DNA from: a bacterium
GTDB lineage: Bacteria; UBA8248
Direction: 5' to 3'
Assembly: GCA_965218885.1 (NCBI GenBank)
Contig: OZ244713.1
Span: 2,104,638-2,168,637, forward strand
DNA: 64,000 nucleotides
In this document: piece after piece, positions 2,793 to 26,662 of the stretch
Layout of the letters: each line of letters begins with the position of its first letter
Position numbering within the stretch: the stretch's first letter is position 1
Notes under the pieces: generated by a model
The model's input: only the letters and a program-made list of their open reading frames with translations
Databases searched by the model: none
Told to the model about the DNA's origin: nothing
Position numbers and translations under genes: made by a program

Positions 2793-3210
2793 TATCGACT
2801 CCCGAATTCTGCGCTGATTTCATCAAGAAGGTTTTGTATGATGTTCGTGGGCGAGAAGCGCGAAAAATTTCTTTCTGTCTCCTATGGTTTCGAGTACACG
2901 GATCCTGCCACCTGCACAAAAAGAGTGTCAAGCTTACTTCTGGGTATTCTTGGAACATGCAAGATTGGATAAGCTTAACACCTACACCTTCCCGGCCCCA
3001 AAAGCCCCAATCGCTTGTGGATGCATGAAAACGCCTCCCACTTCCGAATAACCAGGGCCACAGAATCGGACATGAATGCTCCGTGTGTTCCTTTCCTGAT
3101 TGAAGGAACCAGTTCCGTCAACGATTAGCTCGGACCAGCGCAGGTCCTGAAATCTCGCGCCCGTATTGAGTTTGTAAATGCCCTTGAACGAAACGTCTAG
3201 ATCGTTTCAG

Positions 3211-3849
3211 CACACGTCATAGGTCAGGGGCGCGGCTATCGCCCTGACGAGCTTGAAGCGCATGCTGGCGTACTCGAGCATCGGACATGCGGGCTACGTG
3301 CTGATGGGCGTGGTGGCCACCATGAGCGTTGTGGACGGCAAGGTGACCTTCACATCGATAGGCATCAGCGCGGTGACTTTTTACCTTCTCGCCTACCTGT
3401 TCACGAACCTGGGAGCCTTCGGCATGTTGATTCTCGTGTGCCGGGAGGGCTACCGGGGAGACAACATCGAGGACTGGAGGGGAATCGGCCAAGCCCATCC
3501 CTGGGCGGGGATGGCCTTCGTGGTGTTCCTGCTATCGCTCGGCGGCATTCCGCCGACGGCCGGCTTCGTGGGCAAGCTCTACCTGTTCGCCGCGGCGGTG
3601 CAAAACGAGTATTACTGGCTCGCCGCTATCGGGCTCCTCATGAGCGCGGTTTCGATGTACTACTACGGGCGCATCATGATGGTGATGTTCATGGAGAACA
3701 GGGGAGAGAGCCAGGAGGTGATGAGTCTTTCGAGCGCGCCTTCTCTGTTTTTCGCGCTGGTGGTGCTGGTGGTGGCGACCCTGCTGCTGGGCATCTTCCC
3801 GGGCAGCTTCCTCGACGCGGCGAAGGGCACCGTCGCCGGGTTCATATAG
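3211..3849 (+). pseudogene. nuoN: 5'-truncated NADH-quinone oxidoreductase subunit N (NuoN/ND2 family) fragment. Only the C-terminal ~210 aa are present.
   Basis: ELKRMLAYSSIGHAGYVLMGV... followed by several TM helices is characteristic of the NuoN C-terminal half. The frame opens only at 3211, after a TAG. Upstream DNA is non-homologous AT-rich cassette DNA. Confidence 0.7.
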
Positions 3850-4819
3850 AAACCACACACGACATATAAAGCAGTTACGCCGGCCTCTCGCTCTTACTGA
3901 CCGAGGAGGGAAGAGTCCGATTTTGCGGAATCGGCGCGCTTCATTTCAGGAGCGAACCCCTTGTCGGCCTCGTCTCATGGATTGCGGCTTGCCGTATTGA
4001 AGATGCGGTTACGCAGGAGAACAGGGTGGATTTGCAATCCACTCTTCCGGTTCCATTTCGACCCAAGGGTCAGGTCTTCCGAGAAGGGAAACCCGGGCTT
4101 TTTGAGCAAACCGGCGGTCTGTTTTCCACGCGGCCTCACCACCGCACAATCACTCCCTGCTCGGTCGGGATTGACCCCGCATTTGCCGTATCGGTGAAAT
4201 CTCAAGGTTCGTTATGGTGTGCGCGCACGTGGCGACGCTCACCCAAGTCTTCTCCGAAGCGGCTTCGAGGAGGAGCGAAGGACGGGGTCGCCGGGTTCAT
4301 TCAGAAGTGATGAAACTCAATTTAATACAAAAAATAATATCGATAAAATTAGATAAAATAGCGTGGTTATTCGATAAATTAACGTGGTTTTTCTGAAAAA
4401 TAACGAAGCCTTCAGGATGCGTTCTGCGGGCGTTGTTTTGCGTTATTGGCATTATTTTGGTATTTGAGTCGATCACCCGGATCTCAAGATTGACATTTTG
4501 TCAGAGGCGAATCGCCTATTCCCGAAAAATGGTCAAAGCATGAAGCTGCGCGCCGGAACCCGGAGGCATTTTTACGGGATTTTCCGTACCGAGCAGGTCT
4601 TATATCCTACTGATATGTCTTTGGTTACAGGATTCGCTGATTATCTGCTGGAAACAGGCCTTGTTTGGCATGATTCGTGCATTATATAGGGATGTGAACC
4701 TTTTGCCCTCAATGGGCGCCTTTAGCAGAGGAGCCTTTTCTCCCCGGTGGTCAGTTGAAGGGTCCCCCGATGCTGATTCACTGACATCTCGCCGAATGAT
4801 TCGCTGTTTTTGAGCGAAT

Positions 4820-4862
4820 TCCTTCCAAAATGGGGCATGTCCTTAGGGGCGTGCCCCAAGTC
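4820..4862 (-). terminator. Possible intrinsic terminator downstream of the HAD gene.
   Basis: Minus-strand GGGGCACGCCCCTAAGGACATGCCCC followed by ATTTTGG. The stem is imperfect. Confidence 0.3.
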
Positions 4863-4863
4863 T

Positions 4864-5448
4864 TTATTTATCAAGGAGTTGTTCGAGCAAGGCCGGCGCT
4901 TCCAGTAAGGACGGGAGGGTCAAATCGCTAGGAATGAAGGAATATTCCGACAGATGAACCGACAACATTCCGGCCGTCTTGGCGGCCATCATATCGTATT
5001 TGCCGTCCCCGATGACGATGCATTTTCCGGGCGATACGCCGATTGCCTCGGCTCCTGCGAGCAGGGGCCTCGGGTCCGGCTTCCAATAACCCATATCCCG
5101 GGTGATCAGAACATCGAACGAGATATTGATTTTTTCCGCCATTTTCAGAACATGCCGCTCCGCGTTGTTCGTCACGACCCCGAAGGGGATTCTTTTCGTT
5201 CGCAGATACGCAACCAACTCGTGCGCGCCGTCGTTGGCTTCGGCCATGTCGGCGGCTTTAAGTTCATGTATTTCAAGGATATTCGATATCTCATGCGCAC
5301 GTTCGGGAGAGAGTGTGGGGAGGTGATCCAGAATAGAAATGTCTCCATCGACCAATCCCATCTCCTCTTTCATCGTGGGCCAGTCAAAGGCGGGTTTCGT
5401 GAGGGTACCATCAAAATCAAGCAACACACCCTCCATGGCTCGTTTCAT
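4864..5448 (-). CDS. HAD-superfamily hydrolase (phosphatase-like).
   Basis: It has the LLDFDGTL motif I, a VVTNN motif and the GDGKYD motif IV. A GAGGAAG RBS precedes the ATG at 5448. Confidence 0.75.
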   Translation of the reverse strand: MKRAMEGVLLDFDGTLTKPAFDWPTMKEEMGLVDGDISILDHLPTLSPERAHEISNILEIHELKAADMAEANDGAHELVAYLRTKRIPFGVVTNNAERHVLKMAEKINISFDVLITRDMGYWKPDPRPLLAGAEAIGVSPGKCIVIGDGKYDMMAAKTAGMLSVHLSEYSFIPSDLTLPSLLEAPALLEQLLDK

Positions 5449-5458
5449 ATTTGCTTCC

Positions 5459-6472
5459 TCACAGCACTTTTGAAATTTCATCGGAATCAAATCGTTGAAG
5501 CGGAGAGGTTTTCCCGCCGCGTTGAATCATCACACCAGATTCAGGCGGGCATAATTTGCCGATACGAACACCCATCGCGCCCGTCGTTATGAGCGTTTCC
5601 CGCACGATTTCTTCTCCTTCGGCTGTAACCGCCAGTAAAAGCGCTCCTGATGTAATGACGCCCAAGGGGTCGAGTCCCAATGCTTCGCAAATCTTTTCCC
5701 CTTCAAAAGAGATGGGGATTTGACTCTCCTCCACGATTGCCCCCAAGCCTGCGGCTTCCGCCAATTCGTGAATACCTGTGGCGAGACCGCCCTCGGTCGG
5801 GTCGTGCATCGCGTGCACGCGGCCCGTACCGGCCGCCGCCAGAGCTTGCGACACTATACTGATGCCGGGAGAAACCAGATATCTTTTTGCATTCTCCAGT
5901 ATCTCGATATCCATGATGCTTTTCAGAAAATCGTATTTTGCATCCGCCAGGATCGCCGTTCCTTCAACAGGTATGGGGCGCGTAAGCAGAATCAAGTCAT
6001 CCGTACAAGCGTCCGCGCCTCGTATCAAATTCTCCTTGGATACTTCACCCAGCATGTGGCCCGAAAGAATCGGAAATTCCAATCCCGATGTAATCTCCGT
6101 ATGACCGCCGCATAAGGTAATGCCCAATTCAGTACAGGTATCTCCCACTTCTTCCCAAATACGGTTTATCATCGCCTCATCAGCGCGTCCTTCCGGCAAA
6201 AGGAGAGTCATCAGGAACCACAGAGGGGTAGCTCCCATACAAACGATATCGTTTGCGTTCACATGAACGGCGTAGCGTCCGATATGATGTTCCACAAACG
6301 TGATGGGATCTGATTTTACGACGAGATAACGATCTCCCATGTCGATAACGGCCGCGTCTTCTCCAACCTGTGGACCAACGATGAGGCGCGGGTGAGGATT
6401 CGCGTTTTTGAGTAAAGCGTCCAGCACGTCCGGCGGAAGTTTACCTACGGGAAATGAAGATTTATTCGTCAT
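5459..6472 (-). CDS. AIR-synthase-related protein of the PurM/HypE/ThiL superfamily (HypE-like).
   Basis: It shows the PurM-like N-domain pattern (GEDAAVIDMGDRYLVVKSDPITF) and the C-domain pattern (DPTEGGLATGIHELAEAAGLG). The start is chosen at MTNKSS. Confidence 0.55.
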   Translation of the reverse strand: MTNKSSFPVGKLPPDVLDALLKNANPHPRLIVGPQVGEDAAVIDMGDRYLVVKSDPITFVEHHIGRYAVHVNANDIVCMGATPLWFLMTLLLPEGRADEAMINRIWEEVGDTCTELGITLCGGHTEITSGLEFPILSGHMLGEVSKENLIRGADACTDDLILLTRPIPVEGTAILADAKYDFLKSIMDIEILENAKRYLVSPGISIVSQALAAAGTGRVHAMHDPTEGGLATGIHELAEAAGLGAIVEESQIPISFEGEKICEALGLDPLGVITSGALLLAVTAEGEEIVRETLITTGAMGVRIGKLCPPESGVMIQRGGKTSPLQRFDSDEISKVL

Positions 6473-6665
6473 CCTCTTACCATAAGTGGGAGGTTCAGCA
6501 ACATCAAGCCAGATATCTGGAGCACAAGGCGTTTCAATGTTGACGCCCGGGGTGGAGCGTTTTAGAATCCCGTCTTCCTGATAAAGGCATGGAAACACTT
6601 GCCTTTTACGGAAAATGGGCCGATAAGGAACAACCCTTGGTTGTCTGTCGATTGCTCCACATACT

Positions 6666-6741
<76 letters not shown>

Positions 6742-6768
6742 GAAAGTCTGTAAGAAATTTAGTCCGCG

Positions 6769-7332
6769 TCAATCCGTATTCGTGATTCCTTCTAATACAA
6801 GGTTTTTTCCGTTTATTTCGACAGTGCTCGTGAGTGGAACCGCCGTCTGAACCATTTGCTCGGCATAGCAGCCTTGCTTCGCCAATCGGATGATGTTCAG
6901 GATTTTCTCTTCCGCTTCGCTCGATTCCACCTTGAAATGCGTACGCACCCTTCGGCACCCTGAATTTACATCGCCCTTGAGGACGGAGCCTTTCAGAAAA
7001 TAATCGAATTCAACGCGGCAAGTGGCTTTCGCGAAGGTGGTTTTCGTCATATGGGCGTACCGCCCAAGCTGAGTCAACAGTCAGAATCCGACTCCCATGG
7101 CGATGTATGTGAGAGGCTGCGGATATCTGTCCTCTCCTCCGATGCGGGGTGGTTCGTCGCTAAAGACCTCAAAATGCCGGAAGCGTCCGATTTTGAGTTG
7201 TCCATCGTCCATCGTCTCGGTTTCTGCGAGCATGGTGATCTCATAACCGTCTTTTGGAAGTTCGGGTTTATCAATTGGTCTCTCGCCGGGCACGGTGCTC
7301 TCATGCCAGGGATAGTTTATGCTTTCCACCAT
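6769..7332 (-). CDS. OsmC/Ohr-family (peroxiredoxin-like) protein interrupted by a single in-frame TGA at 7081-7083. It is either a candidate selenoprotein with Sec in place of the first catalytic Cys, or a nonsense pseudogene.
   Basis: ORFs 7081-7332 and 6769-7077 lie in the same frame and are separated only by TGA: ...PLTYIAMGVGF-(TGA)-LLTQLGRYAHMTKTTFAKATCRVEF... The TGA falls where OsmC/YhfA-like proteins have their resolving/peroxidatic Cys (L..G.C..M motif). A second Cys (KATCRV) is retained. A GGGCG-GUA-CGCCC hairpin lies 16-30 nt downstream of the UGA. Confidence 0.5.
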
Positions 7333-7399
7333 ATTTGGTTGTCCTCCAGGGTTTGGACGGGAATGATTCTACTCTGAGAAATGATTGTTTATATGGGTA

Positions 7400-8149
7400 T
7401 TATTCCCATTTCAGCACACAGATGTAACCCTCTTGCGGAATGCTGACGAGCGGTTCCAAGTCTTCCTCTTTTTTGTGCATTTGGATGGTTTTCAAGTGTG
7501 CATACGCCTCCCAGAGCATGTGGCGAAACGTGTATTCCAGGTTGAAATGAAATAGTTCCGTATCCTCCGGGTCAATCCACACGCCTGTGCGATGGGCTTT
7601 GAGGGTGACGTTCTCGCGCCATTGGCGGACATTCTCGCCGGTTCCGGGCCGTATCATGCCCCGCGGCGCGCGCTCGGATATCTTTCTCCCGTCCCGGATG
7701 GATTCGGTCGTCTCCGCTCCCAGCACCTCCCAGGCGAGGGCGAACGAATCCCGCATGACGTCGATAAGGTCTTGAATTTGTGGGCAGTATTCGTCTTTCA
7801 TGATTCGCCCATCGAAGCGCTCGAACAACCCCTTATCGCGCGGAAGCTCATCAGTGAAGAGGATAGCTCCCCAGCGAATGAGCAGCCACCGGTAGGGCAG
7901 AGAGGCCACGTGGCTCACCTGATCCTGGATGGACCAGGAGCCCCAACTCTTCCCCTCTCTCGTTCTCCGCAATGTCCCCTCGGGGAGTCCTTCCGTTTCT
8001 TTTGCATATAATTCAACGACTTGCGGAATTTCGGGGAAAAGCGAGCGCGCTGAATTCTCTCGTTCCTGCATCTTCTTGATTCCTCCGGGCTGGTGTATGA
8101 TGCTCCGCAGTACTGGCCTGAATCGGGCCGGGGATCTCTCGGAAAACAC
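7400..8149 (-). CDS. DinB/YfiT-like (DinB_2 superfamily) putative metal-dependent hydrolase. This is the full-length copy.
   Basis: ORF of 249 aa. The SWSIQDQVSHVASLPYRWLL region resembles the DinB-family helix motif. A second partial copy lies at 11440-11775. Confidence 0.35.
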   Translation of the reverse strand: MFSERSPARFRPVLRSIIHQPGGIKKMQERENSARSLFPEIPQVVELYAKETEGLPEGTLRRTREGKSWGSWSIQDQVSHVASLPYRWLLIRWGAILFTDELPRDKGLFERFDGRIMKDEYCPQIQDLIDVMRDSFALAWEVLGAETTESIRDGRKISERAPRGMIRPGTGENVRQWRENVTLKAHRTGVWIDPEDTELFHFNLEYTFRHMLWEAYAHLKTIQMHKKEEDLEPLVSIPQEGYICVLKWE

Positions 8150-8226
8150 CTCGTTAATTTTCAGAAAAACCCCGTCAATTTATCGAAAAACCCCGTGAAT
8201 TTATCGATATTTTCAGAAATTCCTTA
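8150..8226. promoter_or_regulatory. Tandem 20-bp direct repeat (aaaaaccccgtSaatttatcga x2 plus a partial third copy) immediately upstream of the DinB-like gene. It is a putative operator/promoter element and is duplicated at ~11776-11852.
   Basis: It reads ...tttcagaaaaaccccgtcaatttatcgaaaaaccccgtgaatttatcgatattttcag... in both copies. Confidence 0.4.
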
Positions 8227-9050
8227 TTCTCGAACGCGCCGATTCGCTTCGCAATCATACACGCGCGCGCCTTGAGTCCGATGACGGCAAATGCGGGGAA
8301 ATTAGCCCCTCCGCCGCATCCCGGTGGGTCCGTGTCGGACGATTGCGCAGCCATCTTCCAAAGTCTGATTCGCAACACCTTGCTTACGGTTACGTTCCTG
8401 CGCCCCACAACGTTCACTCAGGAACCACCTCCGATGTGGCGTGCCCCATGAGTTCATTCGAGAAATCACAGAACCTGAGATAGAAATTATATTCGAGAAT
8501 GGATATAAAGCGCAGCCTCCATGGACGCCCTCTTAAGCCCGAGGAAGTTCGGCGCTTCACGGATATGGCGTGGTGGATTGCGAGGATATTGATGTCAATG
8601 GGGAATGATACCGAGGATACACCTCAGGTTTTTTTTGTAGGGGCGGTTCGTCTCTAACCGGGGAAAGATTGGCTGCCTATCTAAACAACCACCTCCCCTG
8701 ATATCATCGCCATCCCGTTCAGATTGTCGTCATTCGCGATTTCGACCACGAACCGGTTCGCCCCTCGTAACCCGTCAGCCTGTCCTTGACGTGGGTGGTG
8801 TAATCGGGCCGGGCCTGCTCGCCGTCGTTGATGACGTCGACTCCCGCCTCCACCTGTTTTCCACGTCGTCTTCTATCGCGCGCGCCACGGCGGCATCGAG
8901 ATCACCGGAATCAGCACCTCCTTCCTCCTGGGCCGGCAACAAATCGACCACTTACTGGGGGCGCGGCAGGCTTCCCGTGTGGGTCGTGGGTATTCTCTCG
9001 GTGCTGCGCTTCATCGTTCGATGCTCCCCTTTCTTCTCAAAAACCGGCCC
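8180..9050 (-). pseudogene. Degenerate cobalamin-independent methionine synthase (MetE C-terminal domain)-like gene remnant in multiple frames. The duplicated copy lies at ~11810-12690.
   Basis: Frame fragments resemble MetE-family motifs: LPAQEEGGADSGDLDVAVARAIEDDVEKRVEAGVDVINDGEQARPD...THVKDRLTGYEG and, further 3', FAVIGLKARA. The reading frame is broken repeatedly. Confidence 0.3.
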
Positions 9051-9752
9051 TTAGCGTTTGCCCCATTTTTTCTTCTCCACCGTCTCTTCTTCTATCTCAT
9101 AGAAGCCCTCGAGGCCGATCAAGTCCTCTACCCCCTGGCGGGCGGCCATGAACTCCTCATGCGTCATGCCCGTGTAATCGCCCGTCTTGCGCACTTCCTG
9201 TAAGGCTTTTTTCATGAAATGGAAACTGACGGTGAGATACAAAATGGCGCGCGATGCCGCCGCCGCCGCCCCGAAAGAGCCGCACGTGCCCGTGGCCCGC
9301 CATCCCTTCAGGCGGTGCGCGGCCATGTTGACCGCCATGCCCACCCGCGCCGCCGTCTCATAACCCGCCGATACCGCTTCTAGAAACGTTTTTCCGTCCG
9401 TTCCCCCAAGTTCACAGGCGGCCAGAGCCGCCGGGATTACGGCCACGCCGGGGTGAAGCTTGGATTTACGGTGCAGATCGTCAAAGATCAGGACGTGGGC
9501 AAGGATGCCGTTCGTAAGAGCAGCGGTGGCCGGGTCGGCCCCGAAATCCCGGCCGATGATCGTACAGGGCCCGTTTCCCGAAGCCGCTTCGGCGGCGCGC
9601 AGGTGAACGCCCGCCTCCTCGGTTCCCAAAGCCCCCAGCGCGCAGCCCAGGTGATCAAGCAGGCAGAACTTCAGAAAATCGGGTATCTCCTTGGGCATAT
9701 CCTCGAGGCGCAGCCCCGACATGAATCCGGCAAGTTGTTTCGAGCGATTCAT
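9051..9752 (-). pseudogene. Chimeric ORF in which the N-terminal ~170 aa of MmgE/PrpD (copy of 14513-15010) is fused in frame to the C-terminal ~65 aa of the PrpB-like gene (copy of 12674-12882). It is the product of an internal deletion in a duplicated segment.
   Basis: The N-terminus [16 protein letters not shown]...GTCGSFGAAAAASRA is ~90% identical to 13628-15010. The C-terminus ILYLTVSFHFMKKALQEVRKTGDYTGMTHEEF...KKKWGKR is identical to the end of 12674-13585. Confidence 0.7.
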
Positions 9753-9779
9753 CGTATCCCTTGGGTGCGATGACGTCTC

Positions 9780-10152
9780 GGCGCAGTGCGCGCACGCGAA
9801 CGGGGCCGACGGGACACTCAAGGCGCACTACAGCAACTGGCGCTGGGTGGTGGCGTCCTGCCGTGATGGTTTCGTGCATACGGCGCCTGTGGGTTCGTTT
9901 CGGGCGAATGGATTCGGATTGCACGATATGCATGGAAATGTATGGGAATGGGTAGTGGATTGTTGGAATGTAAATTATAAAGGCGGCCGGCGCGCCGGCC
10001 ACGGCCCCGGAAAAATAGCATTTGGAGAAGATTGCATTGATGTTTTAACATGGAAACGTTACAATACGGATAAATACTATTGCGATAAAGAAAATGTCCC
10101 ACCTGCATGCTGTACGAGAAAGGTTTCCGGGCGTGCGAACGCCCGTACATAG
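9780..10152 (+). pseudogene. FGE-sulfatase (formylglycine-generating enzyme/SUMF1-like) domain. Only the C-terminal fragment is present.
   Basis: [22 protein letters not shown] is the hallmark FGE-domain motif. The ORF's 5' portion overlaps the antisense strand of the chimeric prpD remnant and has no FGE N-terminal region. Confidence 0.55.
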
Positions 10153-10176
10153 GGTGTGATGCCATAGGGAGGAGCC

Positions 10177-11385
10177 ATGATGCGCATATACTCTTCAAAC
10201 CGGGTCTTGCTCACCTTCTTATGCGCCGCCCTCGCGTTTGTTGCGGCCTCGTTGTGGGGCATGGATTCAGCGCTTGCAGAGGTGCGCAACCCCAAGGGCG
10301 TAGCGGTGATCGTGGGCAACAAGGACTATGAGCACCGCGACATCCCCGACGTCTCTTTCGCCCACCGGGACGCGGACGCCTTTAAGCGCTACGCCGTGGA
10401 CGTGCTGGGTTTCGATCTCAAGAACATCATCGACCTTCGAGACGCTAGGCGCAGAAGGATGTTTGACGCGCTGGGCAGCGAGCGTTCGCCACAGGGGGAG
10501 TTGTGGAGCTACCTCGATCCCGACGGTGGTTCGGACGTCGTGGTGTTCTACTCGGGCCACGGTGTTCCGGGGATGAAGGACAAGCGCGGCTACCTGCTGC
10601 CCGTGGACGGGAGTCCGCACGCGGCGGAAGAAGACGGTTATCCGATCGACCTCCTCTACAAGAACCTGGGGAGTCTCAAGGAAGCGCGTTCGGTGGTGGT
10701 GTATGTGGACGCGTGTTTTTCGGGGAGCAGCGCTGGAGGGAACCTGACGCGTTCGGCGAGTCCGGTCTATGTGCGCGCGGCGCTGCCGAAGGAACTATCG
10801 AAGAAAGTGACGGCGCTGACGGCGGCGAGCGGCAAGCAGTTGGCCTCGTGGGATGATCGTGCGCGTCACGGGTTGTTCACGCATCATCTTCTGGATGCGC
10901 TCTACGGCAAGGGAGATGACGACAAGGACGGCAAGGTGACGGCCAAAGAGGCGAAGAGGTATCTGGACAAGCGGATGACGCGGGCGGCGCGGCGTCAATA
11001 CCGGCGGGTGCAGAATGCGTCGCTGATGGGCTTGAAAGATGCCGTGTTGTCGGTGGCTCGATTCCCGGAGCGCCAGTCTCTGGGCGGCGGGGCGAAGGCC
11101 GTAAAGAAAAAGACAGAAAAAGTCACAACGCTGCTGAAGTCGCCCGTCGTGGACAATGAGCCTGCCCTCGACAGGGAGAAGAAGGTACTGGTGCAGCGCG
11201 GCCTTGGTTCCCTGAAATTCGACCCGGGTCCGGCCGACGGGGCGTTCGGACCGAAGACGCGCGAAGCCATCCGTGGGTGGCAGAAGGCGAAGGGCTACGA
11301 AGAGACGGGCCGCCTCACACAAGAGCAGGCGGATGCGCTGGCCGCTGCAGGAAAATCCGGGAGGAGCGCTCCCTCGGGCGGGTGA
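10177..11385 (+). CDS. Secreted caspase-like (peptidase C14) domain protein with a C-terminal peptidoglycan-binding (PG_binding_1-like) domain.
   Basis: It has an N-terminal signal peptide (LLTFLCAALAFVAASLWG). The caspase core has the His site YSGHG and the Cys site YVDACFSG. The C-terminus GLGSLKFDPGPADGAFGPKTREAIRGWQKAKGYEETGRLT matches the PG-binding repeat. Confidence 0.7.
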   Translation: MMRIYSSNRVLLTFLCAALAFVAASLWGMDSALAEVRNPKGVAVIVGNKDYEHRDIPDVSFAHRDADAFKRYAVDVLGFDLKNIIDLRDARRRRMFDALGSERSPQGELWSYLDPDGGSDVVVFYSGHGVPGMKDKRGYLLPVDGSPHAAEEDGYPIDLLYKNLGSLKEARSVVVYVDACFSGSSAGGNLTRSASPVYVRAALPKELSKKVTALTAASGKQLASWDDRARHGLFTHHLLDALYGKGDDDKDGKVTAKEAKRYLDKRMTRAARRQYRRVQNASLMGLKDAVLSVARFPERQSLGGGAKAVKKKTEKVTTLLKSPVVDNEPALDREKKVLVQRGLGSLKFDPGPADGAFGPKTREAIRGWQKAKGYEETGRLTQEQADALAAAGKSGRSAPSGG

Positions 11386-11439
11386 GGCGGAGCGTGAGTT
11401 TGGGCTACGGTGAAGGAGAGTCAGTCTCCCTCGGACCTC

Positions 11440-11775
11440 GAAGCGCTCGAACAACCCCTTATCGCGCGGAAGTTCATCAGTGAAGAGGATAGCTCCCCAG
11501 CGAATGAGCAGCCACCGGTAGGGCAGAGAGGCCACGTGGCTCACCTGATCCTGGATGGACCAGGAGCCCCAACTCTTCTCCTCTCTCGTTCTCCGCAATG
11601 TCTCCTCGGGGAGATTCTTCGTTTCTTTTGCATATAATTCAACGACTTGCGGGATTTCGGGGAAAAGCGAGCGCGCTGAATTCTCTCGTTCCTGCATCGT
11701 CTGGATTCCTCCGGGCTGGTGTATGATGCTCCGCAGTACTGGCCTGAATCGGGCCGGGGATCTCTCGGAAAACAC
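11440..11775 (-). pseudogene. Duplicated 5' portion (~113 codons) of the DinB-like gene. It is truncated, and the ORF runs on into unrelated antisense sequence of the caspase gene.
   Basis: The first 113 aa are near-identical to 7400-8149, and identity stops at the duplication boundary (~11440). Confidence 0.7.
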
Positions 11776-12673
11776 CTCGTTAATTTTCAGAAAAACCCCG
11801 TCAATTTATCGAAAAACCCCGTGAATTTATCGATATTTTCAGAAATTCCTTATTCTCGAACGCGGCGATGCGCTTCGCAATCATACACGCGCGCGCCTGG
11901 AGTCCGATGACGGCAAATGCGGGAAAATTAGCCCCTCCGCCGCATCCCGGCGGGTCCGTGCCGGATCATTGCGCAGCCATCTTCCAAAGTCTGATTCGCA
12001 ACACCTTGCTTACGGTTACGTTCCTGCGCCCCATAACGTTCACTCAGGAACCACCTCCGATGTGGCGCGCCCCATGAGTTCATTCGAGAAATCACAGAAC
12101 CTGAGATAGAAATTATATTCGAGAATGGATATAAAGCGCAGCCTCCATGGACGCCCTCTTAAGCCCGAGGAAGTTCGGCGCTTCACGGATATGGCATGTC
12201 GAATTGCGAGGATATTGATGTCAATGGGAAATGATACCGAGGATACACCTCAGGTTTTTTTAGGGGCGAATCGTCTCTAACCGGGGAAAGATTGGCTGTC
12301 TATCTAAACAACCACCTCCCCTGATATCATCGCCATCCCGTTCAGATTGTCGTCATTCGCGAGTTCGACCACGAACCGGTTCGCCCCTCGTAACCCGTCA
12401 GCCTGTCCTTGACGTGGGTGGTGCAATCGGGCCGGGCCTGCTCGCCGTCGTTAATGACGTCGACTCCCGCCTCCACCCGTTTCTCCACGTCGTCTTCTAT
12501 CGCGCGCGCCACGGCGACATCGAGATCGCCGGAATCGGCGCCGCCTTCCTCCTGGGCCGGCAACAAATCGACCACTTACTGCGGGCGCGGCAGGCTTTCC
12601 GTGTGGGTCGTGAGATTCTCTCCGTGCTGCGCTTCATGGTTTGACGCCCTTCTTTCTTCTCAAAAACCGGCCC

Positions 12674-13585
12674 TTAGCGTTTGCCCCATTTTTTCTTCTC
12701 CACCGTCTCTTCCTCGATCTCGTAGAAGCCCTCGAGGCCGATCAAATCCTCTACCCCTTGGCGGGCGGCCATGAACTCCTCATGCGTCATGCCCGTGTAA
12801 TCGCCCGTCTTGCGCACTTCCTGTAAGGCCTTTTTCATGAAATGGAAACTGACGGTGAGATACAAAATGGCGTCGATGCAGGCGACGTAGCCCATCTCGG
12901 CCATCTGGGTTTCCGAGTAGAGCGGCCTTCCGTCCCTGTTGCCCCGGCTCTGGACGTACACCAGGGGAATCTTGGACTTCTCGGGGGCGGCGAGGGCTTC
13001 CTTGTGGTTCCGGGGAAAGACGAGGCCCATATCCGCGCCCACGTCCGCGGCCATGTTCACGCGCTTGACCGCCTCGCCGATGCCCCGGAAGCGCGCCGTA
13101 TCCGAACGCGCGATGATGACGAAATCCTTGTCCGTCTCGTCGCGCTGGCGACACGCCATCTTGATCTTGTCGACGAATTCCCTGGCCGGAATCGCGTGCG
13201 CGACGTATTTATGATAGTGCGCGCGCTTGGGGTAGAACTGATCCTCGATGTGAATCCCGGCTATGCCCGCGCGAATGAACTCCCGCACGGAGCGCATGGT
13301 GTGCATCGGCTCGCCGAAGCCCGCCCCGCCGTCTGCGAGGGTGGGTATTTTCACCGCGTTCGCGACGTCTCCGGCCACGTCCACCTGCTCGCGCATCGTC
13401 ACCATCGGCTCGGTGATGCAGCGCGAACCACCCGTCACGAAACCGCCCGTATAGGTCGCCTTAAAGCCCAGGCTCTCCGCCAGCCTGCCCCCGATGGGAT
13501 CGTAGGCGACGGGCATGAAGATGAAATTTCCCCTTTTCAGCAGGGCGCGGAACTTGGTGGTGTTGCGGCGAATGGCCATTTGCAT
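12674..13585 (-). CDS. Isocitrate lyase/PEP mutase-family enzyme (PrpB-like 2-methylisocitrate lyase or carboxyvinyl-carboxyphosphonate phosphorylmutase-like).
   Basis: MQMAIRRNTTKFRALLKRGNFIFMPVAYDPIGGRLAESLGFKATYTGGF... together with the IARSDT/EDQ motifs typical of ICL/PEPM-fold enzymes. Confidence 0.65.
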   Translation of the reverse strand: MQMAIRRNTTKFRALLKRGNFIFMPVAYDPIGGRLAESLGFKATYTGGFVTGGSRCITEPMVTMREQVDVAGDVANAVKIPTLADGGAGFGEPMHTMRSVREFIRAGIAGIHIEDQFYPKRAHYHKYVAHAIPAREFVDKIKMACRQRDETDKDFVIIARSDTARFRGIGEAVKRVNMAADVGADMGLVFPRNHKEALAAPEKSKIPLVYVQSRGNRDGRPLYSETQMAEMGYVACIDAILYLTVSFHFMKKALQEVRKTGDYTGMTHEEFMAARQGVEDLIGLEGFYEIEEETVEKKKWGKR

Positions 13586-13627
13586 CTCCTGTACGGCGAA
13601 ATATGAACCTCTCGGATTTTCCTGGTT

Positions 13628-15010
13628 TTATACTTTTTGAGTTTTCTCGAGGGCAACGAGTTCCTTGAGCTGCGAGAGATTGGGCTGCTCCTCGACACTC
13701 ATCACGAAATCGATGACGGCGTCCTGACTCCCCCGTACAAGCACGGGTGCCGTAAGATCACGGAATTTCTCGACGACCGCCTCCTCGGCGGGCCTGTTTT
13801 CCGGATCGCCCCGGCAGTATTCGACGCGCTCGTGGATGTGCTCGCCATTTTTCAGGTGAAACGTCACGTCGCACGGCTTCTTCTCGTGGTAGATGGCCGT
13901 GAGTTCCGGGTCGGCCTCCACCTGCGTGGCTTTGGCGAATCGCACCAGTTCCGGGTCGTATAAGGATTCGCCCTCGAGATCGGACGGCGAAACCTTGCCC
14001 CGCCTCAGCACAACCGCCATGGCGTATCCCATGTGAAAGATCATCTTGGCGGGCGGACCCGGCTCAAAATCCCAGCCGCACTGGATTTTCGTAATCTCAC
14101 CGGCCCGAATCGAGGTGCGCTCGACGTCCTCGAGCCTCAGGCCATGCTTTTGGCGGGCAAAGAGCGCGGCGTCGATGCCCGTCTGGCTGCTGTGGCAGGT
14201 GGGGTAGAGTTTGATGGAGGTGTCCATGAGCCAATACCGATCGCCCAATCCGTCGGTGAGAATCCCAGGGTTAGGGTCCCTGGTCGTCATGGAGAAAAAG
14301 CCCCCATCGACCGCTTCCAGGGGATCGGATGAGCCTCTGAAGCCTCCCCCGGCCAGAAGCGCCGAGACCACTCCGTTTCTGGCGGCCGTTCCCGCCGCCA
14401 GGTAAAGCTCCATCCCTGAGCCTTGCGTGAAGGCGAAATTACCCGAAGCCTGCCCCGCCGCCGCTGCGATGGCGTGGTGCAGGGTTTCGGACGAGTGATT
14501 CATGGCGCGCGATGCGGCGACGGCGGCCCCGAAAGAGCCGCACGTGCCCGTGGCCCGCCATCCCTTCAGGCGATGCTCGGCCATGTTGACCGCCATGCCT
14601 AAGCGCGCCGCCGTTTCATAACCCGCCGATATCGCTTCTAGAAACGTTTTTCCGTCCGCTCCCCCGAGTTCGCAGGCGGCCAGAGCCGCCGGGATCACGG
14701 CCACGCCGGGGTGAAGCTTGGACTTGCGATGCAGATCGTCAAAGATCAGGAGGTGGGAAAGGATGCCGTTCGTGAGAGCGGCGGTGGCCGGGTCGGCCCC
14801 GAAATCCCGGCCGATGATCATACAGGGCCCGTTTCCCGAAGCCGCTTCGGCGGCGCGCAGGTGAACGCCCGCCTCCTCGGTTCCCAAAGCCCCCAATGCG
14901 CAGCCTACGTGATCCAGCAGGCAGAACTTCAGAAAATCGGGTATCTCCCTGGGCGTATCCGCCAGGCGCAGCCCCGACATGAATCCGGCAAGTTGTTTCG
15001 AGCGATTCAT
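13628..15010 (-). CDS. MmgE/PrpD-family protein (2-methylcitrate dehydratase-like).
   Basis: 460 aa with the typical MmgE/PrpD N-domain and C-domain arrangement. It lies upstream of the PrpB-like gene. Confidence 0.7.
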   Translation of the reverse strand: MNRSKQLAGFMSGLRLADTPREIPDFLKFCLLDHVGCALGALGTEEAGVHLRAAEAASGNGPCMIIGRDFGADPATAALTNGILSHLLIFDDLHRKSKLHPGVAVIPAALAACELGGADGKTFLEAISAGYETAARLGMAVNMAEHRLKGWRATGTCGSFGAAVAASRAMNHSSETLHHAIAAAAGQASGNFAFTQGSGMELYLAAGTAARNGVVSALLAGGGFRGSSDPLEAVDGGFFSMTTRDPNPGILTDGLGDRYWLMDTSIKLYPTCHSSQTGIDAALFARQKHGLRLEDVERTSIRAGEITKIQCGWDFEPGPPAKMIFHMGYAMAVVLRRGKVSPSDLEGESLYDPELVRFAKATQVEADPELTAIYHEKKPCDVTFHLKNGEHIHERVEYCRGDPENRPAEEAVVEKFRDLTAPVLVRGSQDAVIDFVMSVEEQPNLSQLKELVALEKTQKV

Positions 15011-15093
15011 CGCATCCCTTGTGAGCGATGAAAAAGCGCAGCCGCGCCCGCACCCGAGCGGACGCGGCGCGCCGTTTCATCCGGCAAGTGAAA

Positions 15094-16137
15094 TTAGTTG
15101 CCGGTCAGTATCTTGAGCGAGTCCTTGGTCCATTTGTCTCGCATCTTGTCCATCTCGTTCGGGTCCCACCAGTGGTATTTGAGGTCGGAGAGCTTCACGC
15201 CCTCCACGCTGGTGAAATCCTTGCGCAGAGAAAACTTGCCCTTGTCGGAAACCACATTCTGGCCCTCGAGGCTCGAGAGCCATTCGATCAGCACTTTCGC
15301 GCCGGCGGGGTTGGGGCCGCCCTTGGTGATCGCCATCGGGGCGACGAGCAGTGCGCCGCCTTCTTTGGGGAACACCTCTTTGATGGGTGCGTTCTTGCCG
15401 CCCGGGTAGGGGCCGTCGCGGCGAACGAGCATGGAGAGATTCACGCCGAAGTGGCGCTCGCCCGATTTCACCTTGTTGTTCGTGGTGCCGTGGCTGCGCA
15501 CCATCATGGCGTTGTTGTCGCGCGTCTTGATAAACCAGTCGCGCCCGAAGAGCTTGTACATCGTGAACACGAAGTAATAGTGTCCGCCGCCGATCTTCGG
15601 ATCGCCGAAGCTGATCTTGCCCTTCCACTTGGGCTTGTGGAAGTCGAGCCAGCTGTTGGGGATGTCGCCGCCCTTGACGAGTTCGGGGTTGTAGGAAATG
15701 TATTGCAGCCAGGAGGTGTGATAGAAGTAGCCGCAATCCTTCGCCACGGCCCAGTCACGATAGTCCTTGTAGTTCGGGCTGCAATAACGGGTGAGCTGGT
15801 TTTTTCTGTTGAAGCTCAGGAACATTCCCGGATCGGCGGTGGAAATGGCGTCCATGCGCACCTTTCCGGCCCTCAACTCCTGCTTGTAGAGATTGGCGAT
15901 TTTGCCGGACTGGCTCCGGATCATCTTCGCCTTGATGCCGTACTTGGCGAATTTCTTGTTGAACGCCTTGTTCAGTTTTCGCTGGGCGGGCTTGAAGATG
16001 ATGTTGTACACGATGATCTGCCCGCCTTTGGTGCCGGCCGCCATTTTGAGCGTTTCCTTGTCGGCGCCGTGCGCGGCGCCCGCCGCCAGGCCCACCGACA
16101 GCACCAGGCTAATGATGAGGGTTGTCCACTTCTTCAT
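15094..16137 (-). CDS. ABC transporter periplasmic substrate-binding protein (Fe3+/polyamine/phosphonate family, bacterial extracellular SBP family 1).
   Basis: It has a signal peptide and an SBP fold. It is co-oriented with the ATPase and permease. Confidence 0.7.
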   Translation of the reverse strand: MKKWTTLIISLVLSVGLAAGAAHGADKETLKMAAGTKGGQIIVYNIIFKPAQRKLNKAFNKKFAKYGIKAKMIRSQSGKIANLYKQELRAGKVRMDAISTADPGMFLSFNRKNQLTRYCSPNYKDYRDWAVAKDCGYFYHTSWLQYISYNPELVKGGDIPNSWLDFHKPKWKGKISFGDPKIGGGHYYFVFTMYKLFGRDWFIKTRDNNAMMVRSHGTTNNKVKSGERHFGVNLSMLVRRDGPYPGGKNAPIKEVFPKEGGALLVAPMAITKGGPNPAGAKVLIEWLSSLEGQNVVSDKGKFSLRKDFTSVEGVKLSDLKYHWWDPNEMDKMRDKWTKDSLKILTGN

Positions 16138-16167
16138 CTTGCACCTCCTTTGAGATTGAGAAGACAG

Positions 16168-17250
16168 CTACGATTCAACGACGACGCATCGCTCCGGCTT
16201 GGCGGAGACGACCACTTCCTGACCCGTTTCGAACACCTGCGTTGGCTCCGCATGTATCTCGAGCGCCTTTCCGGAAACTTCGACCGCAAATATGGTCGAC
16301 TCCCCCAGGAAAGTAGAATGAATCACCCTGCCATTCCAATGATTCGGTGAATCGCCCCCATCTTGCGGCGCGGACAACCGGAGCGCCTCGGGACGAATCG
16401 AGACGTATACCTTCTCCTCATCCGGCATATGCTGGTCGCCGATGGAAATCTCGATTCCCTCATCCGAAAGAACGAGTGGTTCACCTTCCGCCCCCGCCTT
16501 CTTCGCACCCCCGAAAAGGTTCGTGGTTCCCATGAAACTGGCGACGAAGCGGTTCTGGGGCCGATTGTAGATTTCACGCGGGTCGGCGATCTGCTGCAGC
16601 ACCCCGTGATCCATGATGGCGATGCGATCAGAAAGCGCCATGGCTTCCGTCTGATCGTGGGTGACGTAGACGGCCGTGAAATTCAGCCTCTCCTGCAACT
16701 CCCGAATCTCGAGGCGCATCTGCACGCGCAGATTCGCGTCGAGGTTGCTCAGGGGCTCGTCGAACAACAGCAGGGAAGGTTCCGAAACCAGGCTCCGCGC
16801 GAGGGCTACGCGCTGCTGCTGGCCGCCGCTTATCTGGGTGGAGTAGCGGTGCTCCATGCCGTCGAGTTGAACGAGTTTGAGCGCGTTCATGACTTTTCCG
16901 GAAATGTCTCTGCCCGGCACCCCCCGCGCCCTCAATGGGTAGCCGACGTTCTCGAACAGCGTCATGTGCGGCCAAACGGCGTAGGATTGGAACACCATGC
17001 CCATTTCGCGCTTTTCGGGCAGAACGAAAACGCCGCCATCGATGTCGGTGACGACACCCTCGCCGAGAATGATGCGCCCGGCGGTCGGCCGTTCGAGGCC
17101 CGCGATGCACCGGAGCGTCGTCGTCTTGCCGCATCCGCTCGGGCCGAGGAGGGTCAGCATCTCCCCTTCTTCGACTTCCAGGTCGAGGGCATCCACCGCG
17201 CGCACTTCGTCGAAGTGTTTCGATAGATTCTCGATGGTCAGCGATGGCAA
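16168..17250 (-). CDS. ABC transporter ATP-binding protein (PotA/FbpC-like) with a C-terminal TOBE-like domain.
   Basis: It has Walker A GPSGCGKTT, the signature LSGGQQQRVALAR and Walker B LLLFDEP. Confidence 0.9.
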   Translation of the reverse strand: MPSLTIENLSKHFDEVRAVDALDLEVEEGEMLTLLGPSGCGKTTTLRCIAGLERPTAGRIILGEGVVTDIDGGVFVLPEKREMGMVFQSYAVWPHMTLFENVGYPLRARGVPGRDISGKVMNALKLVQLDGMEHRYSTQISGGQQQRVALARSLVSEPSLLLFDEPLSNLDANLRVQMRLEIRELQERLNFTAVYVTHDQTEAMALSDRIAIMDHGVLQQIADPREIYNRPQNRFVASFMGTTNLFGGAKKAGAEGEPLVLSDEGIEISIGDQHMPDEEKVYVSIRPEALRLSAPQDGGDSPNHWNGRVIHSTFLGESTIFAVEVSGKALEIHAEPTQVFETGQEVVVSAKPERCVVVES

Positions 17251-17265
17251 GGAGCCTCTCCTCCA

Positions 17266-18996
17266 CTATCGGTAGACGGGGGTCACATCCACCTTGAAAA
17301 CCCACTTGAACACGGAAATGACGACGAACATGATCGCCGTCAGAAGCAATGCGCCCGCGCACATGATATTCAACTCCCCGTCCGTCCACTGCTCGAAGAT
17401 CAAAACGGGCAGAACGCGCGTCTCGTGCGTAGTCAAAAGAACCGCCGTGGATATTTCGCGCAGGAAAATGATGAACAGCAAAATCCAGGTGGAATAAATG
17501 CCCGGACGCAAGAGGGGGAAGATGATCCGCCGGAAAGTGAGGAACCAGCTACCCCCGTGAACCCGGCTGCTCTCCTCGAGCTCTCCGTGCACCTGCACCA
17601 CGTTCGCCCCCAGGGCGCGGACGCCGTAGGGCATGAACAGCGTGAGGTACGCGACGACGAGAATCCAGACGGTCGCCCAAATCGGCCACTGGATATACGC
17701 CCATATCATCCCCAGGCCCATGACGATTCCGGGAATTCCCACCGGCATGACGCTCACCTGCTCAAGAATGCCGCGGCCGGGCGCCTTGCTCTTGTGGATG
17801 ATGTAGGCGATGACGGCCGTCATGAGCACGCTGATGGTCGCCCCGCCCGTGGAGAGGTACATCGAGCGGATGAAGGAGTCGAGCAAATCGGGGTTCGTGA
17901 AAAAGACCTCCCAGTTCTCCATCGTCCACAGCCCGAACTTGGGCGTGGCGTAGGGCTGCATGCTGACCTTGATGAGCACCAGCCCGGGCAGGATGACGGC
18001 GAGCAGCGCGTAGAGCGCCGTGAACAAATAGGCGAAGGGCGTCAGGCGGCCGAGAGAGTAGAGCTTGAGGCGAAACCCACGTCCGCTCACCAGGGCGTAG
18101 GAGCCTTTTCTGAGAATCCACCGCTGCAAGAGGATGCAAATGGCGGTGATGGCCATCAGCGTAAGGGCGGCGACGGTCGCCTCCCCGTACAGGGGCGGGG
18201 CGAAAACCGATTTTGCGAAAATATCCGTCGCCAGCACCACGATCCGCGCCGGAAAACCCAAAATGGCCGCCACGCCGAAGATCCCCATCGTAATGACGAA
18301 CACGAGCGTCATGCCCGAGAGGATGGCGGGAAGAATGACCGGAAACGTCACCCGCGTCAGGGTGCGGAACAAGCCCGCTCCCGACATGAACGAGGCCTCC
18401 TCATACGTCGTGTCCACCGAGCGGAGCGCCGCCGAGGTGAACAGAAACATATAAGGCGCCATGTATATGCCCGAGACCCAGATGATCCCCCAGACGGAGT
18501 ACACGTTGATGGGCAGTCCCGTCCAGAGTTTGACCATCCCGTTGGTGGGGTTGCCCAGAAGAATCCAGGCGAGCGCGCCGACGAAGGTGCTGGTGAAAAA
18601 CGGAAGAATGGCGGAAAGCTCCACCCAGCGCTTCCCGCGCATGTCGGTCTTCACGACCAGCCAGGCCAGGGGCGAGCCGATGATCGTCGCCAGGAAGACC
18701 ACGCCGAAACCGACCAGCAGGGTTCTGCCCACCGTGCGCCAGTAGCCCGGATTGCCGAAAACGACGCGGAAGTGCTCGAGCGTCCACACGCCTCCCTCCC
18801 CGGGAGGTTCGGACTGAAACGCGCCGTAGAACAGGTTGAGAACGGGAGCGAGGACGAACCACAGAACCAGCACCGTCATCACAACGACCGTGACGACCTC
18901 GAACGGCGTGACGCCCGCCGCGCGCAGCCTTCTGAGCGGCGCGTGGAAATAGCGCTCGAGCGCCCCTCCCGGGTTCTGAACAACTGTTTCGGCCAT
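17266..18996 (-). CDS. ABC transporter permease with two fused permease domains (FbpB/iron(III)-type).
   Basis: 576 aa and about 12 TM segments, with two EAA-like loops. Confidence 0.8.
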   Translation of the reverse strand: MAETVVQNPGGALERYFHAPLRRLRAAGVTPFEVVTVVVMTVLVLWFVLAPVLNLFYGAFQSEPPGEGGVWTLEHFRVVFGNPGYWRTVGRTLLVGFGVVFLATIIGSPLAWLVVKTDMRGKRWVELSAILPFFTSTFVGALAWILLGNPTNGMVKLWTGLPINVYSVWGIIWVSGIYMAPYMFLFTSAALRSVDTTYEEASFMSGAGLFRTLTRVTFPVILPAILSGMTLVFVITMGIFGVAAILGFPARIVVLATDIFAKSVFAPPLYGEATVAALTLMAITAICILLQRWILRKGSYALVSGRGFRLKLYSLGRLTPFAYLFTALYALLAVILPGLVLIKVSMQPYATPKFGLWTMENWEVFFTNPDLLDSFIRSMYLSTGGATISVLMTAVIAYIIHKSKAPGRGILEQVSVMPVGIPGIVMGLGMIWAYIQWPIWATVWILVVAYLTLFMPYGVRALGANVVQVHGELEESSRVHGGSWFLTFRRIIFPLLRPGIYSTWILLFIIFLREISTAVLLTTHETRVLPVLIFEQWTDGELNIMCAGALLLTAIMFVVISVFKWVFKVDVTPVYR

Positions 18997-19051
18997 AAAA
19001 CCTCGCCTCTCGCCCTACCCTCGGCCTATGAGAGCAGCCGCGCCGGCGGCG

Positions 19052-22690: not shown

Positions 22691-22692
22691 CC

Positions 22693-24816: not shown

Positions 24817-24835
24817 CGACGCTAGCCGCGCGCCT

Positions 24836-26554: not shown

Positions 26555-26662
26555 GCGTTCTCCGTGCCAAGATGGTTCAAATATCAAAGTAGAGCGGGAA
26601 GCTATCATAACACCACGGTGGGACGCCATTCCCGGGCGCTTCCGCCTCCAGAAATCGAGATC

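Follow-up and report, generated by a model that had tools for sequence, protein, structure and literature searches.

A segmental duplication on either side of a caspase gene island, probably a population-level structural polymorphism, in a bacterium of the UBA8248 lineage

The subject of this analysis is a duplicated locus at 7.4-15.1 kb of a 64,000-nucleotide stretch of bacterial DNA (GTDB lineage Bacteria; UBA8248; assembly GCA_965218885.1, contig OZ244713.1, positions 2,104,638 to 2,168,637 of the forward strand), the whole of which is called the window below. Two copies of one segment stand on either side of the remainder of a two-gene caspase island. Copy 2 carries an intact pair of enzyme genes, one of the MmgE/PrpD family ('prpD-like') and one of the PEP-mutase/isocitrate-lyase (ICL) superfamily ('prpB-like'), and copy 1 carries an internal deletion that joins parts of both into one chimeric open reading frame (ORF). 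The locus is probably a real structural polymorphism of the population at a variable cargo hotspot, made by a duplication at short microhomologies and followed by deletional loss from the spare copy and by allelic mixing.

Structure of the duplication and its alleles in related genomes

Self-BLAST and a repeat search of the window recovered two collinear matches, both in the same orientation and with similarity above chance. Block A1 (7812-9257) matched block A2 (11438-12879) with 95.9% identity over 1,448 columns and 6 gaps, and block B1 (9244-9773) matched block B2 (14502-15031) in the self-BLAST with 93.2% identity over 530 nt without gaps. The two matches overlap by 14 nt in copy 1, and copy 1 equals copy 2 minus 1,636 nt (12880-14515; given the overlap at the junction, 12866-14501 is equivalent). 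The copies showed 97 differences, evenly distributed and without long identical or hyper-divergent tracts, and homology that would continue past 9773/15031 into the next gene was looked for and was absent. The arrangement is not a simple head-to-tail tandem duplication with a single novel joint, as the copies are separated by 1,664 nt of unique island DNA (9774-11437) and there are two novel joints, at 9773/9774 and 11437/11438. The parts of the locus are:

7812..9257, block A1 (copy 1): the first 260 nt of the DinB-like gene and the sequence upstream of it, a 21-bp array, ~840 nt of remnant or non-coding sequence, and the 3' end of the PEP-mutase-family gene
9244..9257, junction of the 1,636-nt deletion, identical in L009 and L010
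9244..9773, block B1 (copy 1): the 5' 503 nt of the MmgE/PrpD-family gene and 21 nt upstream of it
9767..9773 (= 15025-15031), B1/spacer joint, GCGATGA, from a three-way comparison with the B2 side and the intact FGE-domain gene of L011 and L012
9774..11437, + strand, unique spacer U, the remainder of the two-gene caspase island; absent from L001, longer in L011, L013, L015 and L016
9774..10152, + strand, 3' fragment (~126 codons) of a caspase, PG-binding and FGE-sulfatase gene whose 5' part was lost at the joint; the FGE-sulfatase match lies on ORF 9691-10152
10177..11385, + strand, intact 402-aa Peptidase_C14 (caspase) and PG_binding_1 gene (Pfam)
11438..11445 (= 7812-7819), spacer/A2 joint with the 8-nt microhomology TCGAAGCG, from the window and L010 aligned against L009, L011, L012 and L013
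11438..12879, block A2 (copy 2), from self-BLAST and the repeat search
12880..14515, segment X, in copy 2 only: the first 713 nt of the PEP-mutase-family gene, an intergenic gap, and the last 888 nt of the MmgE/PrpD-family gene
14502..15031, block B2 (copy 2), from self-BLAST

A first-pass annotation of the same DNA had described near-identical blocks at 7811-9249, 11440-12882 and 14513-15020, which lie within a few bases of the self-BLAST coordinates, and had suggested the self-comparison and the measurement of divergence that gave the matches and identities above. Its description of a true segmental duplication, with an internal 1.6-kb deletion in copy 1 that yields an in-frame fusion ORF, was borne out, as was its placement of the full 223-aa gene that it called DinB-like at copy 1 only and of the full enzyme pair at copy 2 only.

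Each of the three novel joints of the window falls on a perfect microhomology. At the internal deletion this is ATGGCG (9244-9249 = 12867-12872 = 14502-14507), followed by a near-identical CGATGC and lying inside a 14-nt near-match; the other two joints carry GCGATGA and TCGAAGCG. The B1/spacer joint was identical in L009, L010 and L019, while at the position of the spacer/A2 joint L009, L011, L012 and L013 had 36 nt of extra island DNA and resumed at 11646. Microhomologies were also present in the relatives (CCCCGCC.CCGC in L012 and L014, GCGGC.TCGA in L019), and across all alleles the novel joints showed 6-13 nt throughout. The chance of a perfect identity of at least 6-8 nt at a random joint is about 1e-3 to 1e-4 for each. 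The same joint signature is carried by experimentally verified spontaneous deletions and duplications of Salmonella (PMC3411829) and has likewise been described for illegitimate recombination in E. coli and B. subtilis (PMC11111574).

The related loci, given L numbers here, were recovered with the PrpD-like protein (six loci of metagenome-assembled genomes) or through the genomic contexts of near-identical caspase proteins (the others). The segment is single-copy both in a relative without the island and in relatives with it. L001, on a 4.27-Mb chromosome, was collinear with window positions 4473-9257 and 11438-25003 via one shared copy and had no spacer. L011, L013, L015 and L016 carried a longer island that was flanked only by a ~173-nt direct repeat, without any large duplication. 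The order of the L011-type allele is the 223-aa gene, the 21-bp array, a longer FGE gene, the caspase and PG-binding gene, 36 nt, the ~173-nt promoter-region repeat, and a single prpB-like/prpD-like pair. L002 and L003 were uninformative on the island, since their flanks beyond the prpB-like gene consisted of unrelated housekeeping genes and synteny breaks there.

The duplication of the window recurs on other contigs. L009 (2x coverage) and L010 (4x), two separate low-coverage contigs, contained both the deletion junction and the B1/island joint, and L010 additionally contained the island/A2 joint. L019 (12x, from another sample) had the same B1/island joint with a different deletion in copy 1, in which 8899 is joined to 14166 at the microhomology GCGGC(A/G)TCGA; a complete copy 1 therefore once existed and was eroded independently. 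A sister duplication was found in L012, L017, L014 and L018, where copy 1 ends within X, at window position 14470, and is attached to the FGE gene at a point 319 nt farther upstream, through an imperfect G+C-rich microhomology of 12 nt. L012 lies on a 3.97-Mb contig of 26x coverage that is labelled circular, and L018 comes from a short-read assembly of another study. The copy-1 prpB-like gene was still complete in L014, and a 756-nt internal deletion had taken part of it in L012 and L017. Copy 2 was intact in all island-bearing alleles whose contig extends that far (12/12), and copy 1 was always truncated or eroded. Within L012, the X fragments of the two copies (7994-9273 and 12843-14120) were 99.1% identical and the neighbouring A segments 92-93%, which indicates a probable recent gene-conversion tract between the copies.

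Divergence between the copies, the chimera and a likely history

The coding differences between the copies were biased to third codon positions. In the prpB-like part all six were synonymous changes at third codon positions (6/6), the prpD-like part had 7, 6 and 20 differences at the three codon positions, and both parts combined gave [7,6,26] (p = 5.7e-5). The ratio of nonsynonymous to synonymous substitution (dN/dS) between B1 and functional alleles was 0.08-0.27, the same range as among the functional alleles themselves, and the three B1 sequences had no substitution in common that was missing from functional genes. For B1 and for the 3' part of A1, the alleles of L003 and L011 were the nearer ones, at about 96% identity against 93-94% for the sister copy. 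Because of the third-position bias, the lack of private B1 changes and the greater proximity of B1 to other alleles, the divergence is allelic and arose in functional genes. Similar mosaics were seen elsewhere: the A2 fragment 11438-11645 was 100% identical to the intact gene of L009 and 96% to the window's own copy 1, copy 1 of L009 was in some segments similar to copy 2 of the window and in other segments to neither copy, and a full-length prpB-like protein from elsewhere (P0130) had a C-terminus identical to that of the chimera. The simplest reading of these sequences is that the two copies would be different alleles, brought in by frequent homologous exchange among co-occurring lineages of ~95% identity. 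The differences would have been shaped by purifying selection before the copies met, and in recombining populations such as this the percent divergence of paralogous copies is no measure of the age of a duplication.

The product of the internal deletion in copy 1 is an intact reading frame:

9051..9752, - strand, chimeric ORF of 233 aa, intact and in frame (Pfam, and BLASTP against both parents)

Residues 1-168 correspond to the N-terminus of the MmgE/PrpD-family protein (BLASTP against the 460-aa parent), and residues 169-233 are identical at 65/65 positions to the C-terminus of the PEP-mutase-family protein, whose stop codon is shared. The frame is thus uninterrupted across both parents. The chimera spans Pfam MmgE_PrpD_N profile positions 1-162 of 244, lacks the C domain, and ends in a 65-aa TIM-barrel tail; the source genome's own gene call for it (P0133) is 223 aa long. 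Copy 1 retains 21 nt upstream of the start codon. A promoter scan limited to the sigma-70 consensus revealed no sigma-70-like site upstream of the chimera, and copy 1 appears, as far as consensus scans can tell, to be cut off from the transcription of its operon. A search of metagenome contigs with the chimera returned only distant PrpD relatives, look-ups by exact sequence of the window's PrpD-like protein, the chimera and the caspase protein gave no record, and the chimera-specific substitutions were too few for selection to be measured. The in-frame status appears accidental, with other, unrelated deletion products in L019 and L012. The chimera is very probably a non-functional by-product, and in annotation the 233-aa 'PrpD' should be marked as a fusion pseudogene.

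Three other explanations of these observations were weighed. The first-pass annotation had raised the possibility of a mis-assembly, in which a collapsed or chimeric repeat would have been built from mixed reads of co-occurring strains while the true genome is single-copy. Several strains of ~95% identity do coexist in these metagenomes, a setting in which chimeric contigs can form, and the complete identity of the A2 fragment to the strain contig L009 would fit such an origin. The novel joints, however, are not confined to this contig: all three recur on contigs whose flanks differ from the window by 1-9%, and thus on other molecules (L009, L010 and L019), related duplications with the sister joint occur in other samples and with another assembler (L012, L014, L017 and L018), every joint lies at a microhomology as biological illegitimate recombination predicts, and copies that have diverged by 5% would escape collapsing. 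Judging from these other contigs, a collapsed-repeat artefact can be set aside for practical purposes, and we give it hardly any credence. The first-pass annotation had itself favoured a recent tandem duplication in situ, after which the copies diverged and decayed reciprocally. Direct repeats in the same orientation with complementary gene losses, and differences evenly spread along the repeat, speak for this view. The substitution pattern is at odds with it, as the differences are synonymous and biased to third positions, the chimera-bearing contigs share no B1-specific substitution, and B1 and the 3' part of A1 are nearer to alleles of other genomes than to the sister copy. Further, the copies flank island DNA and are not adjacent, and the duplication is common to several lineages in different states of erosion, so that it is not young relative to the divergence of the strains. 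The decay is also not reciprocal: erosion is found in copy 1 only, and at copy 2 the DinB-like piece owes its truncation to a rearrangement joint at TCGAAGCG. An origin by recent duplication and neutral decay is therefore quite unlikely. Very unlikely, too, is a new selected role for the chimera, such as that of a dominant-negative or regulatory subunit in the oligomers of its parents. The window, L009 and L010 all have the ORF intact, its ribosome-binding region is kept, and pairwise dN/dS between chimeras is 0.11-0.35. Against this, the protein would consist of only two thirds of one helical domain and a 65-aa TIM-barrel tail, it is without a recognisable promoter and severed from its operon, and L019, L012, L017 and L014 erode the same copy differently without a conserved product. 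A low dN/dS is expected of recent samples of functional alleles, and low-coverage contigs make the counts unreliable.

For the preferred explanation, a microhomology duplication with subsequent loss and allelic mixing, we infer the following order of events. The starting point would be an L011-type single-copy allele with the island, beside an ABC-transporter operon that ends in the MmgE/PrpD-family and PEP-mutase-family genes. Illegitimate recombination at the 7-nt GCGATGA, either inside a single genome or while DNA of a sister lineage was being taken up, would have joined the DNA just ahead of the start codon of the prpD-like gene to a site midway in the FGE-domain gene, and this exchange would duplicate the segment from the 3' part of the FGE gene to the 5' end of the prpD-like gene. 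Loss of the first island copy between the 173-nt repeats would then give the order array, A, X, B, truncated island, array, A, X, B; the same arrangement would result if such a segment entered an island-free allele. The result would be a second, promoter-less copy of the 21-bp array, remnant DNA, prpB-like and prpD-like genes on the far side of the island. Once detached, copy 1 would lose DNA through independent microhomology deletions, one in the window, L009 and L010, one in L019, and one in L012 and L017, and in the window's lineage the 1,636-nt deletion at ATGGCG would have put the N-terminus of the PrpD-like protein in frame with the C-terminus of the PrpB-like one. The boundary between island and copy 2 would have been remade in the window and L010 at TCGAAGCG, adding 200 nt of the 223-aa gene, either by repair of a break from an intact copy of that gene or by one-step homology-facilitated illegitimate recombination of incoming DNA. 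Homologous recombination among the lineages of ~95% identity would bring alleles together or overwrite them and so yield the 4-7% difference between copies, and recombination between A1 and A2 would remove copy 1 and the island and restore an L001-type allele. The topology also fits the integration of a circle by a Campbell-type event, or homology-facilitated illegitimate recombination in one step; with the donor unsampled, they are treated as variants of this explanation and neither is claimed.

Several points weigh against this reading. The continuity of the window's contig across 7.4-15.1 kb is inferred from other contigs, and L009 and L010 have low coverage and may share the window's sample. 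The persistence of an intact chimeric frame in all three contigs that carry it, with the dN/dS given above, leaves some constraint on the chimera possible, and its presumed silence is drawn from sigma-70 consensus sites. One ancestral duplication followed by two deletions that removed joints fits as well as two independent duplications; the island was 98-100% identical among the duplication-bearing alleles, with flanks of 91-98%, and this similarity would mildly favour a single origin of both kinds of copy-1/island joint.

Gene names and neighbouring features

The genes and further features inside and beside the duplication are:

7400..8071, - strand, intact 223-aa gene with a 'DinB-like' hint (translation), its 5' 260 nt inside the duplication
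10795..11697, - strand, second by-product ORF of 300 aa: 86 DinB-like codons and upstream region, reading into the caspase gene antisense
12342..12575, - strand, MetE-like remnant ORF of 77 aa (Meth_synt_2, E = 5.7e-4, 19.7 bits against a gathering score of 21)
12674..13585, - strand, intact 303-aa PEP-mutase/isocitrate-lyase-superfamily gene, 'prpB-like' (Pfam PEP_mutase)
13628..15010, - strand, intact 460-aa MmgE/PrpD-family gene (Pfam N and C domains)
15041..15068, - strand, terminator-like hairpin after the solute-binding-protein gene (consensus scan only)

The names prpB and prpD, as given by the first-pass annotation, hold for superfamilies and fail as identities of equivalogs, and DinB is at best a hint at a superfamily. 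The 303-aa protein belongs to the PEP-mutase/ICL superfamily, but it scored 138 bits against TIGR02317, for which the NCBIfam cut-off is 354, and its PDB neighbours span several different lyases and hydrolases. Likewise, the 460-aa protein is a member of the MmgE/PrpD superfamily according to Pfam, with 41-48 bits against NCBIfam cut-offs of 458-950; its nearest solved relatives are iminodisuccinate (IDS) epimerase and IRG1/cis-aconitate decarboxylase (CAD), not 2-methylcitrate dehydratase. Because both enzymes are far below the equivalog cut-offs, the names are valid at superfamily level only and the pair is better not called PrpB/PrpD. The 223-aa gene matched DinB_2 weakly (E = 0.11, 13.4 bits versus 24.8), and searches of Pfam, NCBIfam, PADLOC and PDB sequences did not confirm a DinB assignment. 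It was conserved in L001, L009, L012, L015, L016 and L017 and split into shorter ORFs in L011, L013 and L019. The first 86 aa of the 300-aa ORF 10795-11697 align with the intact 223-aa gene, and that ORF should be annotated as a junction artefact. The copy-1 counterpart of the MetE-like remnant (about 8719-8951) contains a 1-nt indel at 8859.

Upstream of the enzyme pair are genes for a solute-binding protein (15094-16137), an ABC ATPase and a permease. A 440-aa ORF at 15028-16350 (+) was rejected as the antisense shadow of the solute-binding-protein gene. The T-tract of the hairpin at 15068-15041 ends at 15031, which is the duplication boundary, 21 nt upstream of the PrpD-like start codon. 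Further along, at 20906-28759, a hydantoinase B gene and two genes of the hydantoinase/oxoprolinase A type (762 and 867 aa) lie downstream of both the transporter operon and an HMGL-like gene. Such surroundings suggest that the MmgE/PrpD-family and PEP-mutase-family pair works in a catabolic pathway other than the methylcitrate cycle.

The region on the other side of the 223-aa gene contains one structured RNA gene:

6666..6741, + strand, tRNA-Phe(GAA)

The tRNA-Phe was the only hit of an Rfam scan of 3-17 kb. It adjoins, at 5459-7332, an AIRS-domain gene that resembles SelD/HypE below the cut-offs and an 83-aa ORF (7081-7332, - strand) that matches only the N-terminal third of the 'OsmC-related (seleno)protein' model. 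The 83-aa ORF may be either a fragment or a selenoprotein gene that an in-frame UGA interrupts. A 93-aa ORF at 6677-6958 (-), which overlaps the tRNA gene, is probably spurious.

The cargo site, known systems and significance

The caspase island occupies a site at which different genes are found in different strains. The 402-aa caspase protein scored 73.6 bits against the NCBIfam model caspase_w_EACC1, under its 140-bit cut-off, and gave a weak PADLOC caspase match; near-identical homologs were present in other assemblies. A fuller version of the caspase, PG-binding and FGE-sulfatase gene was found in L011, L015 and L016, called there as two or three overlapping ORFs. Other contigs carried other cargo: L010 has, at 505-5693, a 5.2-kb restriction-modification block in copy 1 that encodes a type IV-like restriction enzyme and two DNA methyltransferases and takes the place of window positions 8313-9033; L009 has a 218-aa ORF and an S8 subtilase at 8878-14051; and in L014, at 11434-21179, two tyrosine recombinases come first and cadherin-like and autotransporter genes after them.

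Two kinds of repeated sequence lie at the start of these variable regions, namely a 21-bp array and a leader motif. The array is present twice in the window:

8142..8207, + strand, three 21-bp units (GAAAAACCCCGTCAATTTATC), 71 nt upstream of the 223-aa gene (TRF, motif census)
11768..11833, + strand, second copy of the 21-bp array (TRF, motif census)

The structural breakpoints of the relatives cluster at the end of the array. Arrays of the 21-bp unit AAAACCCCGTCAATTTATCGA also occurred in L011 (7023-7064 and 11424-11465), L014 (6595 and 11413), L004 (13017) and L006 (13018). An inverted array copy of ~65 nt lies 3.7 kb away at 4336-4406 of the window, and the pair brackets the HAD, AIRS/SelD-like, tRNA-Phe, OsmC-like and 223-aa genes. 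The array could be an operator, a homology anchor or an att-like site. A conserved ~60-nt motif (TGTAATCAAAnCGAAAGCGGA...CATC..G.GGG....GTCG) was found in the leader ahead of variable cargo in L011 (7185-7275), L009 (8975-9065), L014 (11545-11635) and L004 (13092-13182), and also in L002 (13000-13090, - strand), in L005 (13580-13660, - strand) and at 29055-29145 of the window, where it precedes a 472-aa ORF (29385-30803) with weak metzincin matches. The motif had no Rfam match, and its reading as a structured RNA was rejected, with a consensus fold of eight motif copies of -3.3 kcal/mol and no covariation; it is probably a regulatory element at the DNA level.

These sequences bear on a further explanation of the duplication, as the footprint of site-specific or cassette insertion, with the 21-bp array and the conserved ~200-nt leader as an attachment or anchor site and with circular or incoming cargo duplicating the flanks by a Campbell-type single crossover. 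Different cargo begins just past the array and leader in different contigs (the caspase-FGE gene, the S8 subtilase, the restriction-modification genes or the two tyrosine integrases), the L011-type island is flanked by the 173-nt direct repeat ending in the array, and the inverted array copy at 4336-4406 would fit as well. However, the joints of the large duplications (GCGATGA, TCGAAGCG and CCCCGCC.CCGC of L012) lie inside genes and far from the array, and breakpoints near the array are equally explained by homologous recombination anchored in the conserved promoter region. Neither is the locus a tRNA-linked integrative island: a search of the window for a second copy of the 3' end of the tRNA-Phe gene gave none, the 64 kb that the window spans around the locus lack an integrase, and integrases were found only in L014. 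We regard insertion of this kind as unlikely. It is similarly doubtful that the array and the leader, which contains the ~60-nt motif TGTAATCAAA..GCGGA..CATC..GGG..GTCG found also before a metalloprotease-like gene at 29.06 kb of the window, form a dedicated docking or regulatory module by which protease-type and other conflict cargo is swapped between strains, with the flanking duplications as the regular footprint of insertion through a circular or incoming intermediate; if this were true, the duplicated promoter would drive antisense transcription into the caspase gene.

In preference to these, the duplication by microhomology can be set beside known rearrangements. Duplications and deletions with short junctions have been described in Salmonella chemostats (PMC3411829), as tandem duplications in E. 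coli and B. subtilis (PMC11111574, PMC6614815), and as amplifications in Acinetobacter (Reams & Neidle 2004, cited in PMC11111574). The present locus resembles them in its 6-13 nt G+C-rich direct microhomologies, its direct repeats, its single-copy relatives and its secondary microhomology deletions. It differs in that the window copies are not head-to-tail and have island DNA between them, so that one island copy was lost or incoming DNA was involved, and in that, unlike in the laboratory cases, the copies are different alleles drawn from standing variation in wild populations.

Homology-facilitated illegitimate recombination was reportedly described by de Vries & Wackernagel in 2002 for natural transformation. 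In this process a homologous anchor and a microhomology joint would convert a single-copy recipient to the window's arrangement in one step, given a donor with the island, and it would also account for copies 1 and 2 being different alleles. In contrast to such a case, no donor of the copy-1 allele was found among the sampled loci, the L009 alleles fit the recipient side, and competence is hypothetical here. The chimera resembles gene-fusion pseudogenes produced by deletion between adjacent co-oriented genes, combining the 5' part of the upstream gene with the 3' part and stop codon of the downstream one; unlike these, it lies in a redundant copy with both parents intact nearby, so that no function is lost. 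The site as a whole is similar to variable cargo and defence hotspots, with caspase, restriction-modification, subtilase or integrase genes at the same position depending on the strain and a tRNA-Phe gene 1.1 kb away. It is unlike them in that no integrase or att repeat was found in the window and in that the caspase, known here from its sequence, matches the defence-database model only weakly.

The window contains two other repeats. A second, older duplication (41371-43774 and 48444-50841) comprises MMPL-family transporter genes (764 and 762 aa) with 80% nucleotide identity, and its 3' flank has extra short copies (47971-48189 and 48444-48662; 41349-41472 and 47949-48072). A weak direct repeat of 73-87% identity (60520-60933 and 63323-63735; 61135-61194 and 63938-63997) lies in a region that also holds an acyl-CoA-synthetase-like (AMP-binding) gene (61677-63332, - strand), and probably represents paralogous gene ends.

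Across several long-read metagenomes, fourteen alleles of the caspase locus present four states: one copy, an inserted island, a duplication, and erosion of the spare copy in at least three independent stages. With an allele series of such unusual completeness, the locus is a clean natural example of ordinary bacterial genome plasticity, and no new mechanism is needed.

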